Below, piece after piece: positions 24,908 to 63,581 of a DNA stretch of 64,000 nucleotides. Where the stretch lies: positions 224,001 through 288,000 of the IMG/VR virus record IMGVR_UViG_3300046786_000293; one strand, written 5' to 3'. Each line of letters opens with the position of its first letter. The first letter of the stretch is position 1. The notes under the pieces were generated by a model that worked only from the letters and a program-made list of their open reading frames with translations, had not been told where the DNA came from and made no database searches. This DNA is from a virus. Its lineage: Duplodnaviria; Caudoviricetes. The translations under genes and the position numbers were made by a program.

Positions 24908-25009
24908 ATGAAATGGCTTAAAAATTTATACTACAGAATTAAGTTGGAAATCAATTATCGTCGCAAACTTAAAGAATTGCGAAAACGCGATCCGTTTATT
25001 TATAAATGA
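24908..25009 (+). CDS. 33-aa basic protein
   Basis: Manual translation MKWLKNLYYRIKLEINYRRKLKELRKRDPFIYK; fills gap; ATGA overlap with 25006. Confidence 0.55.
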   Translation: MKWLKNLYYRIKLEINYRRKLKELRKRDPFIYK

Positions 25010-48217: not shown

Positions 48218-48262
48218 AGTTTATTGAACCACATATATATTTATCTTTTAAATGTGCGTAGA

Positions 48263-55382: not shown

Positions 55383-56036
55383 TTAAAATTCTAAAACAAA
55401 ATGTGAAGTTTTTCTATAAACAGTACGTTTTGCCTTTAAACTCATGTTATCAAATAATTCGTCGTCGATTATTCTACAATGCATTTTTTCTGCGTCAGGC
55501 CATCCGCTTCCAATTGCTATAGGATGCATACCTGGATGATTCGCAATACACATTAGTCCACTAAATTGTTTACAGATATTATCCCACACAGGCTCGAATT
55601 CTTCTTCGAGTATATGTTCAATTGATTCTACCATGAGAACTGTGTCAAATTTTGAAAAATCTGCTACAAAATTTTTAACATTGGTTTCTATGACCTTTGG
55701 CGGAATAAACTCGTCTCCAAAGAACTGTTTACCAGTTCGATCAAACCAATTCTGAATGTTGATTGCTATATCCACCGCAGTAACAGGAATACCTAATTTG
55801 GATAAAACACATGATATTTCTCCTCTGCCAGGCCCTATTTCCAATACATGGTTGGGAGTTCTAGTTTTATAATTATTTAAAAATTGCAACTGATCTTCAA
55901 GTGTATTACACTCGATTAAATCATAAATGCCAAATGCATAACACAAGGCCGGAAACTGATCATTCGACCTTAACATTTTTTTATTCCAATTATCTAAATC
56001 AGAATAAAAATACCCTTCTTGGTATGCAAAACTCAT
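55383..56036 (-). CDS. Class I SAM-dependent methyltransferase
   Basis: VLEIGPGRG, AVDI, FDTV...ESIEHI; start corrected to ATG 56036 (ATGA overlap with queD). Confidence 0.75.
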   Translation of the reverse strand: MSFAYQEGYFYSDLDNWNKKMLRSNDQFPALCYAFGIYDLIECNTLEDQLQFLNNYKTRTPNHVLEIGPGRGEISCVLSKLGIPVTAVDIAINIQNWFDRTGKQFFGDEFIPPKVIETNVKNFVADFSKFDTVLMVESIEHILEEEFEPVWDNICKQFSGLMCIANHPGMHPIAIGSGWPDAEKMHCRIIDDELFDNMSLKAKRTVYRKTSHFVLEF

Positions 56037-56536
56037 GCAAATAAATCCTCGTTCCATTCACGATGACCTTCACGGAATGCCATATTGCTTTGTGTTTCAC
56101 GCACCTCTACACGATAGCACCATAGTCGTTGTGCTTCTCCTGGCCCCCACAGGTCAGGTATATAAACACCATTGACATACTTGTAAAGCATGTCGGCCAG
56201 GCCTTCGCAACCCAGTCTCGGTAAGACTACAACCTTGGCCATTTTCTTGGCTTCTAGTAGTTTGTATGTTTCCATTTCAGGATCATCTTGTGCCACAATC
56301 AACGTGTGGTCGAACATATCCTCTAATAACTTCTTCAAGTCTTTCAATCCACCGTAGTCAGCGGCCCAGTTGCGTACATCTAGGTCATTAGTACCAAAGT
56401 AAAACTTCATTGAAAAACTGTAGCCATGAATTAAGTTACAGTGACTATCGGCACGCCATTGACGATACGCACAGGGAAATGCGTCGTGATATTCTTTGGT
56501 GCTTGTGTATTTGTAGGTAATTGTTTGATTTGCCAT
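56033..56536 (-). CDS. queD: 6-carboxy-5,6,7,8-tetrahydropterin synthase
   Basis: HCNLIHGYS (CxxxHG), DYGGLK, FDH, CEGLA, V.VRET..N. Confidence 0.88.
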   Translation of the reverse strand: MANQTITYKYTSTKEYHDAFPCAYRQWRADSHCNLIHGYSFSMKFYFGTNDLDVRNWAADYGGLKDLKKLLEDMFDHTLIVAQDDPEMETYKLLEAKKMAKVVVLPRLGCEGLADMLYKYVNGVYIPDLWGPGEAQRLWCYRVEVRETQSNMAFREGHREWNEDLFA

Positions 56537-56574
56537 CTCTAGTCTCCTTTATGTTAGGTAGCAAGTTTGATGGT

Positions 56575-56613
56575 ATGCAGAATCTTTATAGAGGGATGAA
56601 TGCCAAGTCCTCT
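56575..56613 (-). ncRNA. Candidate preQ1 class I-like riboswitch aptamer in the queD leader
   Basis: AGAGG-ACTTGGCATTCATC-CCTCT-ATAAA: P1 stem and A-rich tail match the B. subtilis queC aptamer pattern AGAGG-N12-CCTCT-ATAAA; begins 8 nt after an AATAAATA promoter. P2 pseudoknot partner not evident. Confidence 0.55.
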
Positions 56614-56624
56614 TGAGTAAGTAT

Positions 56625-57134
56625 TTATTCCCACCAACGCTCGTAGGGAAAAACAATCCATTCTTTTTTGCTTTTAGTAATCTCTTCGCCACTAAAGTCT
56701 ATGGTAACGTGGGACTTACTGCTAACGTTATCGTATACTACTGCAAATTTTACATTATGATTCCAAACATCTTTCCAACTTGGATCCTTGGGTAAACAAC
56801 TAGATTGCCAATCTTCGATAAGCCAATTAATTGTTTTACCTGTATCATTGATGTCGTCGACAATGAGAATCTTTTTGCGAGCAGTTACCTCAGGCTTGCC
56901 GTATTCGTAGCCAAATGCATCTTCAGCCATCCACAAATTACTTTCGTTAGTTTCGGGCTTGCTGGTTACATGTAGTGCATACATAGGAATATCAAAATAG
57001 TGACTAATCATAACTGCGGGAATAAGACCACCGCGAGTTAGTCCTACAATATAATCGGGGCGCCAATTACTAATAGCAATGCTTCGACAAATTTTAGCGA
57101 CCCGGCTATTATATTCTTTATTAGTAAGATCCAT
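56625..57134 (-). CDS. Type I phosphoribosyltransferase (Gpt/Hpt-like)
   Basis: IVGLTRGG, ILIVDDINDTGKT (PRPP loop), WIVFPYE. Confidence 0.88.
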   Translation of the reverse strand: MDLTNKEYNSRVAKICRSIAISNWRPDYIVGLTRGGLIPAVMISHYFDIPMYALHVTSKPETNESNLWMAEDAFGYEYGKPEVTARKKILIVDDINDTGKTINWLIEDWQSSCLPKDPSWKDVWNHNVKFAVVYDNVSSKSHVTIDFSGEEITKSKKEWIVFPYERWWE

Positions 57135-60504: not shown

Positions 60505-60526
60505 AGATATCTCCTAATATTAGTAT

Positions 60527-61255
60527 TTATCGTGGTGCAAATTCTTGTTGGAGCTTGATATTGTCAAAGAATTCTTTCTTTGTGCCTGCATCATCTTTAA
60601 AAGCACCTCTTAGAACAGTGGTTTGCGTGAGACTAGAGTGCGCCATAATGCCGCGATTTTCACAGCACCCGTGCGTGGCTTGGATGTAGACCGCAACATC
60701 CTTGGAACCAGTAGCAAACTCAATCTCTCTTGCAATGTCCATGCACAACTCTTCTTGTAGTGTGCCTCGACGAGCGCACCATTGAGCGATGCGACTATAC
60801 TTCGATAACCCAATAAGTTTAGGTCCAGCAATAATACCAATATACGCAACACCCGAAACAGGTTGGTGATGATGGCTACACATACTCTTGAGTTCGCTAC
60901 GAACAACAAGCATTCCGTCATACTTACCTTCACTATCATTAGGGAACGCAGTAGCATTGGGACTTTGTTCATATCTACCTGCCATAATCTCATTGAAATA
61001 CATTTTAGCAAGTCTACGTGCTGTACCTTGACTATTAGGATCAGTCTCTCGATCAATTAGTAGTCGATCAAGCACTAATTCAAATGCTTCTGTTGCTTCG
61101 TCGATAAGTTGGTCCATATGAAACTCATCAACATAATCACTGATGTTGTCTCCAGCCCAGAAACGTTTACCTTCTCGTTTCATTTTAAAACGAAGTACAT
61201 CTGCCAGGTACGCTTCTTCGTAACCACCTGTGTCTAATTCCTTACCGATATCCAT
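60527..61255 (-). CDS. folE: GTP cyclohydrolase I
   Basis: TARRLAKM, SMCSHH.QP, GLSK..R, LQEEL, ATHGC..NRG. Confidence 0.95.
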   Translation of the reverse strand: MDIGKELDTGGYEEAYLADVLRFKMKREGKRFWAGDNISDYVDEFHMDQLIDEATEAFELVLDRLLIDRETDPNSQGTARRLAKMYFNEIMAGRYEQSPNATAFPNDSEGKYDGMLVVRSELKSMCSHHHQPVSGVAYIGIIAGPKLIGLSKYSRIAQWCARRGTLQEELCMDIAREIEFATGSKDVAVYIQATHGCCENRGIMAHSSLTQTTVLRGAFKDDAGTKKEFFDNIKLQQEFAPR

Positions 61256-63131: not shown

Positions 63132-63581
63132 TTAGATTTTAACACTAAGATTAGGTCGGTGAGTTTCATATTTAATAAGTGCGCCGTTTTCACCATCTTC
63201 AGCCACTTCAATCCAAACTGCCCGATTGGGATACCGTTCAGCAATTTGTAGATATAAGTCATCTGCAATCATTTCGCAGGATTTGTAGTCGAGTTTGAGG
63301 ATTCCGCCTGCGTAGAGATTTTCGAGCCAGCGTTTGAATTGGATGAACTCGATGTCTCTGTCATTGTGTACAACATCAATCCACACCCGGAAATGGAAGA
63401 TATGGCGGTGAGGACTGCCAAGGAAACTAACGTCATACTCATCGCCCGTCGCAAGTTCGGGTGCTGTTGCGGCTGCTGGATAGCAGTGTATTCCTTCTTT
63501 GCGGAAGGTAATCCAGATTTTTCGTTCTGCATGTTGCTTGATTCTTTCAACAGTTTCTCGGTCAGTTGCGTTCATTTTCAT
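63132..63581 (-). CDS. QueD-like T-fold protein, candidate CDG decarboxylase (DpdL-like)
   Basis: LGSPHRHIF (LxxxHRHxF) replaces the QueD CxxxHGH; DIEFI, SCEMIA, V.EDGENG. Confidence 0.6.
   Translation of the reverse strand: MKMNATDRETVERIKQHAERKIWITFRKEGIHCYPAAATAPELATGDEYDVSFLGSPHRHIFHFRVWIDVVHNDRDIEFIQFKRWLENLYAGGILKLDYKSCEMIADDLYLQIAERYPNRAVWIEVAEDGENGALIKYETHRPNLSVKI

Follow-up and report, generated by a model that had tools for sequence, protein, structure and literature searches.

Class I preQ1 riboswitches (preQ1-I, Rfam RF00522) carry a highly conserved cytidine at the 3' end of loop L2, the specificity base that pairs with the ligand, and an A-rich loop L3 whose last adenines abut helix P2 and contact both the ligand and the floor of the pocket (PMC10622847). 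A second relevant system is enzymatic: DpdL, defined in phiST (a phage of Cellulophaga) and ACP17 (a phage of Acidovorax) by Cui et al. 2023 (PMC10516641), is the proposed 7-carboxy-7-deazaguanine (CDG) decarboxylase of phages that lack QueC and have 2'-deoxy-7-deazaguanine (dDG) in their DNA. Here we describe an RNA element in the leader of a phage queD gene, located in a 64,000-nt stretch of DNA (the window) that spans positions 224,001 to 288,000 of IMG/VR virus record IMGVR_UViG_3300046786_000293 (Duplodnaviria; Caudoviricetes). The element matches no catalogued RNA family and resembles the class I preQ1 riboswitch. The leader at 56613-56572 on the minus strand is a 42-nt H-type pseudoknot, and the reality of this structure is essentially certain. 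The best explanation, to which we give a probability of roughly 0.55, is a ligand-stabilised pseudoknot aptamer that together with its expression platform forms an ON switch for queD and represents a distinct, phage-specific class or subtype related to preQ1-I. That the element functions as a riboswitch is, by itself, likely.

Structure and covariation of the leader pseudoknot

Read on the minus strand, the leader runs through GGGAATAAATA (which holds the TAA stop of the upstream gene), CTTACTCA (an 8-nt spacer), AGAGG, ACTTGGCATTCATC, CCTCT, ATAAAGATTCTGC, ATACC and ATCAAACTTGCTACCTAACATAAAGGAGACTAGAG to the queD start codon ATG (56534-56536). Helix P1 is formed by AGAGG (56609-56613) and CCUCU (56590-56594), which enclose the 14-nt hairpin loop ACTTGGCATTCATC (56595-56608). 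This loop comprises L1 (ACUU, 56605-56608), the 5' strand of P2 (GGCAU, 56600-56604) and L2 (UCAUC, 56595-56599). P1 is followed by the 13-nt L3 (AUAAAGAUUCUGC, 56577-56589), which starts with ATAAAG (56584-56589) and has an A-rich first part and then an invariant U-C-(Y)-G-C, and by the 3' strand of P2 (AUACC, 56572-56576). The Shine-Dalgarno (SD) sequence AAGGAG (56544-56549) lies 34 nt beyond ATAAAG. The elements listed in an initial annotation, made from the letters and their reading frames, are each present on this strand at these coordinates. The P2 partner, which that annotation had called not obvious, was found by comparative analysis, GGCAU (56604-56600) pairing with AUACC (56576-56572). 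It had also noted that AGAGG and CCCUCUAUAAA are identical to the Bacillus subtilis aptamer; the identity is real, since the aptamer string it gave is printed verbatim in three papers. AGAGG-N10-18-CCCTCTATAAA has a single occurrence in the window, and 0 of 100 dinucleotide-preserving shuffles contain it.

A search of viral contigs with the QueD protein returned more than 594 relatives, of which 80 loci were kept. The motif lies upstream of queD on the coding strand in 78 of these 80 loci collected by QueD homology; one of the 78 is truncated by a contig end, and one of the two loci lacking the motif has zero upstream sequence. A pattern scan blind to gene content gave 99 distinct matches, about 85 with the complete motif, and a QueD homologue follows in 92 of 93 distinct copies, mostly starting 50-100 nt past P1. 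The downstream QueD proteins of the 93 distinct copies share 30-100% amino-acid identity with the window QueD, and the RNA core is thus better conserved than QueD, whose identity falls to 30%. The window copy scores 58.8 bits with a covariance model built from the copies. The proposal of a structured, conserved RNA in the queD leader is therefore borne out: the alignment of relatives shows conservation and covariation in both stems, rather than the lack of both that the initial annotation had named among the grounds for abandoning its proposal.

P1 (5 bp) is paired in 99.3% of cases in the gene-anchored set, with double-sided changes at three pairs (A-U/U-A at pair 1, G-C/C-G at pair 2, A-U/C-G/U-A at pair 3); the first pair is mismatched in some copies, leaving a 4-bp P1. 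In P2, bases immediately 5' of the conserved L2 UC(A/G) pair with those immediately 3' of the conserved (Y)GC; the helix ranges from 3 to 7 bp among copies. Its alignment was anchored on these conserved flanks alone and is therefore not fitted to pairing. Five pairs of P2 are 84.5% paired, compared with 51.0% in shuffles (0 of 500 reached the observed value), and the covariation score is 0.859 vs 0.260 (0 of 500). Double-sided changes are seen at all five pairs, with 149 cells changed on both sides, and registers slid by one to three columns reach 29-49% pairing overall. Versions of P2 include GGCA/UGCC, GGCG/CGCC, GGCUU/AAGCC, GACGU/AUGUC, GACGC/GUGUC, GACUU/AAGUC, GACAA/UUGUC, GGUGU/ACACU and AUGGCAU/AUGUCAU. 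The whole pseudoknot was also assessed on a MAFFT alignment (A1), and P2 pairing was also counted separately.

Two other pairing schemes were rejected. A P2 register that uses the conserved UGC of L3 fits only clades with a near-repeat tail (UGCUGCC) and fails in the GACGU/AUGUC, GACUU/AAGUC and GGUGU/ACACU clades, and in the separate count slid registers reach 8-68% per pair. Pairing of the L3 CYGC with the 5' strand of P1 was the other, and it shows no covariation with the middle P1 pair. Plain minimum free energy (MFE) folding of the leader gives z = -0.08, a value without information here, since the structure in question is pseudoknotted.

Some 13 loop nucleotides do not vary across the gene-anchored copies. 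L1 contributes CU, L2 its 5' UC and its final C, and L3 three A's and, within its 3' half, a U, a C, a G and a C. The first nucleotide of L1 varies (U in 24, C in 21, A in 13) and positions 2-3 are the invariant CU, as compared with the ligand-contacting L1 uridine of preQ1-I; relatives have 0-8 extra nt in this loop (alignments A1 and A3). L3 is 13 nt long in 84 of 84 distinct copies tallied, and one gene-anchored copy (L033) has one extra base. The C directly 5' of the P1 3' strand (C56595 in the window) is present in all 59 gene-anchored copies that cover it.

Covariation proves a structure, not ligand binding, and the leader could be read by no small molecule at all, acting as a protein translational operator or as a device whose folding, independent of any ligand, determines how much or when queD is translated. 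T4-related phages use protein translational repressors, and many relatives have a nested sigma-70-like promoter, so that promoter choice could decide whether the inhibitory strand is included in the transcript. Against this stand the ~13 invariant unpaired nucleotides around the P1/P2 junction, which are typical of a ligand pocket, the parallel between this layout and a known small-molecule aptamer of the same pathway, and the constancy of the motif while QueD diverges to 30% identity and the neighbouring genes change. In addition, no co-varying protein partner was identified in a search limited to neighbourhood annotation. We consider a role independent of any small molecule unlikely, if still a serious contender.

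Expression platform and direction of control

The 3' strand of P2 is common to P2 and to an alternative helix that would hide the start codon. In the window, the MFE fold of the platform is an imperfect hairpin (56533-56573, minus strand) in which CCAUC (56573-56569) pairs with GAUGG (56537-56533, holding the AUG) and CU.GCU.CCU (56565-56556) pairs with AGGAG.C.AG (56548-56539, holding the SD); its overlap with P2 consists of C56573 and C56572. When the sequence after L3 was folded, at least two of the five P2 3' nucleotides paired with the region from the SD to AUG+8 in 90 of 93 copies. The predicted helices over the SD are CCUAUG/CAUAGG and ACUCC/GGAGU, and those over the AUG are UGCCAUC/GAUGGCA, AAGUCAUC/GAUGACUU and GCCGU/AUGGC. 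In all five of these designs the 3' strand of P2 complements either the SD or the start-codon region. Compared with preQ1-I as a test of membership, the SD lies outside P2, at least 20 nt beyond its 3' strand.

In the group of copies whose helix covers the AUG, the helix covaries with codons 2-3 (U-A/C-G/U.G and A-U/U-A), and the 5' strand of P2 mimics the start region (GACUU vs AUGACUU; GGCA vs AUGGCA). Codon covariation together with start-region mimicry is the signature of two mutually exclusive pairings. The leader thus has the general features of a riboswitch, namely a conserved structure, an invariant unpaired core and mutually exclusive aptamer and platform pairings.

If the element is a riboswitch, the ON direction is probable from the modelled folds: a ligand is predicted to turn queD translation on because the P2 3' strand otherwise pairs with the SD or the start codon. 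In the ligand-free RNA, this strand would pair with the ribosome-binding region and hide the SD and AUG. A small ligand held between P1 and P2 would stabilise the pseudoknot and capture the P2 3' strand, a stabilisation that is expected by analogy with all pseudoknot riboswitches. The SD and AUG would then be freed and QueD translated. The initial annotation had suggested feedback control; classical negative feedback is not supported, as the platform is reversed relative to preQ1-I and the wiring predicts activation by the ligand.

Several observations weigh against an ON switch of a distinct class related to preQ1-I. P2 of the window (GGCAU/AUACC) has a C.A mismatch at its middle pair. A control in which P2 3' strands were swapped cut the overlap with the platform moderately, with 0-1 overlapping nt in 24% of cases vs 3% of real ones. 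Forcing P2 in the window removes the basal helix, yet the inner hairpin over AGGAG/SD partly stays; the window copy may respond less sharply because this hairpin partly survives in the mimic of the bound state. The ON direction itself depends on predicted secondary structures, and it would be unusual for a pathway product to activate the first committed enzyme, with no obvious inducer known. Lastly, the likeness to preQ1-I does not reach statistical significance (11.3 bits, E = 2.4 for relative L009 in a 61-nt search).

Relatives such as L043 have AUGCC as their P2 3' strand. Position 56574 is a G in contigs of co-occurring relatives from a source-like freshwater sample, where both pairings are restored; the A at this position in the window weakens the competing anti-AUG helix too.

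The same aptamer could instead belong to a ligand-sensing riboswitch of a new type that represses, for example if the bound pseudoknot stacked on the platform hairpin or sterically blocked the 30S ribosomal subunit. No validated preQ1 riboswitch is known to be anything but an OFF switch. A repression mechanism has been described (PMC10622847). The inner hairpin keeps the window SD paired in the bound-state mimic, and P2 of some clades stops only ~8 nt short of the SD. The outer P2 pairs that overlap the platform helix are, however, supported by covariation, so P2 and that helix cannot coexist, and each of the five platform designs has its anti-SD or anti-AUG strand within P2. This makes repression an improbable outcome, and we retain the ON switch as the preferred reading.

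Gene neighbourhood, distribution and candidate ligands

The controlled gene, queD (56033-56536, minus strand), encodes a 6-carboxytetrahydropterin synthase-like protein of 167 aa, a QueD/PTPS homologue (Pfam PF01242, 54 bits; phrog_2389, 125 bits). Its leader is an 88-nt gap, among the widest intergenic gaps in a tightly packed run of genes; the sole wider gap (~340 nt, between yhhQ and a MazG-like gene) has small open reading frames inside. The same-strand genes after queD encode a SAM (S-adenosylmethionine) methyltransferase, a cupin, YhhQ (TIGR00697, 105.9 bits, cut-off 51), a MazG-like protein and a QueE-like radical SAM enzyme (phrog_2076, 177 bits). Among relatives, the genes that follow queD vary by clade (L263, L226; L001, L196) and queD is the sole constant target of the RNA. 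Some clades have a gene of the DAHP/KDO8P-synthase family, others encode a glycosyltransferase alongside a B12-binding radical SAM enzyme, and others again QueE together with a histidine phosphatase.

Just upstream of the leader is a gene for a xanthine/guanine-type phosphoribosyltransferase (PRTase; TAA stop at 56627-56625), and a FolE gene lies 4 kb further upstream. A second T-fold protein (phrog_17812; 63132-63581, minus strand) is a homologue of DpdL from phiST and ACP17, and this DpdL homologue is also encoded in all five of the other large records with the motif, two of which are 100% complete. Nothing convincing was found for QueC in the source genome (a single partial match of 25 bits), and a real QueC is present in 0 of those five records. 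A search of the genome with the Pfam TGT (tRNA-guanine transglycosylase) family for DpdA gave no match, and a 518-aa DpdA candidate has no sequence match in Pfam, PHROG or PDB; failure to detect DpdA is not evidence of its absence, because the DpdA of phiST is recognisable by profile-profile methods (HHpred) only (Cui et al., PMC10516641). Together, FolE, QueD, QueE and DpdL without QueC point to a 7-deazaguanine pathway.

The invariant L2 cytidine, the FolE/QueD/QueE/DpdL set without QueC and the PRTase and YhhQ neighbours suggest, by analogy, a guanine-like ligand, probably a heterocycle that would be read by the L2 cytidine. Candidates include 7-deazaguanine, CDG, preQ0 or preQ1, guanine and the pterin substrate of QueD. 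The initial annotation had proposed a ligand-sensing variant. The conserved structured RNA agrees with this, and since the phages have DpdL and lack QueC, it is reasonable to think of a variant ligand such as CDG or 7-deazaguanine. As a speculation, a precursor or released guanine acting in a feed-forward manner would suit the ON logic better than feedback from the product. A more specific possibility, which we offer tentatively and rate somewhat below even, is a new phage riboswitch class, derived from preQ1-I or convergent with it, that senses a base other than preQ1 and activates translation of the first committed enzyme of a QueC-independent DNA hypermodification pathway. The base sensed would in that case be, with the same reserve, 7-deazaguanine, CDG or free guanine released by DpdA base swapping.

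A promoter-like AATAAATA (56622-56629, minus strand) overlaps the PRTase stop and resembles T4-type late promoters, a function we infer from the likeness. The motif ATAAATA, which we take to match the T4 late promoter consensus, is depleted about threefold in the window (9 found, 30 +/- 5.6 expected). Of its minus-strand copies (56622-56628, 60524-60530, 48238-48244 and 24997-25003), at least three of four lie at gene boundaries; depletion and boundary placement fit a T4-type late promoter used genome-wide. Of 92 distinct upstream regions, 74 have a TAAATA/TAAGTA/TATAAT-type hexamer or a full TTGACA-17-TATAAT upstream of P1, mostly ending 7-10 nt before it. The transcript should begin at the aptamer, because this promoter-like box sits just upstream of P1. 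For the leader in the window, prediction gave neither a sigma-70 promoter nor an intrinsic terminator.

Among copies whose platform is of the CCUAUG...CAUAGG type (L001, L009, L012 and others, e.g. L012:2950-3000), 24 of 29 show a near-consensus sigma-70 promoter nested in the element. Its -35 box is in L3 (TTTACA/TATACA) and is separated by a spacer of 17-18 nt from an extended -10 (TGCTATAAT) in the hairpin loop. A transcript started at this nested promoter would miss both the aptamer and the anti-SD strand; the promoter is absent from the window copy.

H-type pseudoknots commonly stimulate frameshifting or stop readthrough, and such a role at the end of the PRTase gene was considered; a weak Rfam DnaX match (13.3 bits, E = 1.1) over an AAAAAAG run (56663-56669, minus strand) speaks for it. 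This A-run is out of register with the PRTase frame and ~50 nt upstream of P1, probably a chance occurrence. Relatives have unrelated upstream genes, with promoter-like boxes between the gene and P1, and the motif tracks queD, not the upstream gene. The comparative data on frame, distance and intervening promoters effectively refute a recoding role, whose probability we regard as negligible.

The source genome, a 338.5-kb record of freshwater origin estimated to be 97% complete, contains no second copy of the element detectable by covariance model (next best match 13.7 bits). Estuary metagenomes hold DNA near-identical to it, low-share runs of the metagenome search having been set aside in naming habitats. 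An exact 30-mer scan of viral contigs gave no matches, and a blastn search with two leaders as queries gave chance matches only among 50,697 records of cultured phages. Model R1 found nothing above 15 bits in the cultured queD phages ACP17, BUCT-ZZ01, BUDD, Pan1 and phiST, where the motif is absent; queD adjoins its upstream gene with little or no leader in the first four, and the gap in phiST is ~146 nt. The cultured freshwater cyanophage BUCT-ZZ01 (a Synechococcus phage; ON615601.1 69843-71763) encodes xanthine-guanine PRTase, a hypothetical protein, QueD and FolE, a local gene order that matches the window, yet the genes overlap and the leader RNA is absent.

A pattern scan of genome contigs gave at least 120 matches, and among those listed nearly all are chance occurrences. 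A true copy was found in a Haliscomenobacter metagenome-assembled genome (MAG), the sole bacterial genome with a genuine match among those listed, in which two contigs (183 kb and 39 kb) each carry the motif followed by QueD (G005:C1:164384-164433, locus L196, and G005:C58:25261-25308, locus L335). One of these QueD proteins is 88% identical to that of the window. These are probably phage contigs placed in the bin, and they could instead hint at the host. The motif was found in uncultured phages only, apart from the phage-like contigs of this MAG.

One contig of 143 nt, assembled from a freshwater metatranscriptome (RNA-library run X10), maps to 56529-56572 of the window and has a relative's leader with the motif (GGCAUCAUCCCUCUCUAAACAUUCUGC). 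It is weak evidence for transcription of the leader in nature, as DNA carry-over is possible. The mapped runs are stored as assembled contigs, which are uninformative on transcription start, strand and level and in which gaps in cover are meaningless.

To our knowledge, phage riboswitches are scarce and none governs phage DNA hypermodification. Full-text literature searches found no description of a phage queD riboswitch or of a fourth preQ1 class, and the word riboswitch does not occur in Cui et al. (PMC10516641). The element is tiny (~42 nt), plentiful in freshwater and marine viral contigs, and shows unusually clean covariation. If the proposed switch is correct, it would be the first known riboswitch controlling viral DNA modification and the first known ON-type preQ1-like pseudoknot, and it would tie metabolite sensing to the timing of a phage pathway that counters restriction. 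Were the ligand a 7-deazaguanine other than preQ1, guanine or a pterin, the smallest known riboswitch fold would have been retuned in both ligand and regulatory sign. The element could also provide a compact ON switch for synthetic biology and a metagenome marker for QueC-less (DpdL-type) modification clusters.

Comparison with known systems

The Rfam models were run against the whole window at gathering thresholds and against the 221-nt leader at E <= 10. PreQ1 (RF00522, cut-off 39 bits) had no match in the window at its gathering threshold and none at E <= 10 on the leader, and the element is not among the matches of an Rfam search of its own genome. PreQ1 is the sole Rfam family that aligns to the element at all; the alignment extends over P1, the L2 UC, the 3' strand of P1 and the first part of L3 (UUACAAA in the aligned relative). 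The DnaX, JPX, bxd and cyano sRNA matches in the window or leader are noise.

An ordinary preQ1-I member, with preQ1 or preQ0 as its ligand and with the classical negative feedback on queD known from the B. subtilis queCDEF operon, would account for the P1 sequence and CCCUCUAUAAA, both identical to B. subtilis, and for the shared topology, the invariant C at the specificity position, the que gene downstream and the YhhQ transporter in the same operon. This assignment is contradicted by the Rfam scores (no PreQ1 match at E <= 10 for the window, 11.3 bits against 39 in relatives) and by an L3 of 13 nt with an invariant UC-GC where preQ1-I has ligand-contacting adenines beside P2. The first L1 nucleotide is variable, and the P2 3' strand complements the SD or AUG instead of containing the SD. 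Moreover, the phages are without QueC and thus do not themselves make preQ0 or preQ1. We find ordinary membership very improbable. The initial annotation had called the element preQ1-I-like, which holds for the pseudoknot, the L2 C, the A-rich start of L3 and the que gene, and breaks down at the Rfam PreQ1 model (cmsearch), the L3 extension and the platform. Because of its sub-cut-off score, the lack of adenines abutting P2 and the position of the SD outside P2, we do not file the element as a preQ1-I member. It appears rather to be a preQ1-I-related fold that forms a distinct phage-specific class or subtype.

The closest described relatives remain the preQ1-I riboswitches (types I-III, e.g. 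B. subtilis queC, T. tengcongensis and E. coli yhhQ). Like these, the element is an H-type pseudoknot with a 5-bp P1, an L2 of ~5-6 nt with a conserved end cytidine beside the P1 3' strand, an L3 that begins U/A-rich (AUAAA) and a short P2 made from the hairpin loop and the 3' tail; the window copy shares AGAGG and CCCUCUAUAAA with the B. subtilis aptamer. It also sits in the leaders of queuosine/7-deazaguanine genes (QueD downstream in 92 of 93 copies; YhhQ and a QueE-like enzyme in the window operon). Unlike preQ1-I, it scores far under the Rfam cut-off, its L1 consists of a variable base, the invariant CU and a variable insert, and its 13-nt L3 reads NUANAAA and then invariant (Y)UC(Y)GC, a six-nt invariant extension that places C, not A, beside P2. 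P2 reaches up to 7 bp, and its 3' strand is the anti-SD or anti-AUG strand rather than the SD, for which the predicted logic is ON.

In this logic the element is comparable to the Vibrio vulnificus add adenine riboswitch, in which the aptamer and a helix sequestering the SD and AUG compete for one strand and the ligand frees the ribosome-binding site. The add riboswitch is a three-way junction, not a pseudoknot, and has another ligand and other genes. In gene content, the phages with the motif resemble those with the DpdL-type dDG pathway (phiST and ACP17; PMC10516641), having FolE, QueD, QueE and a DpdL homologue without QueC, and they differ from phiST and ACP17 in that the motif is present here and absent there.

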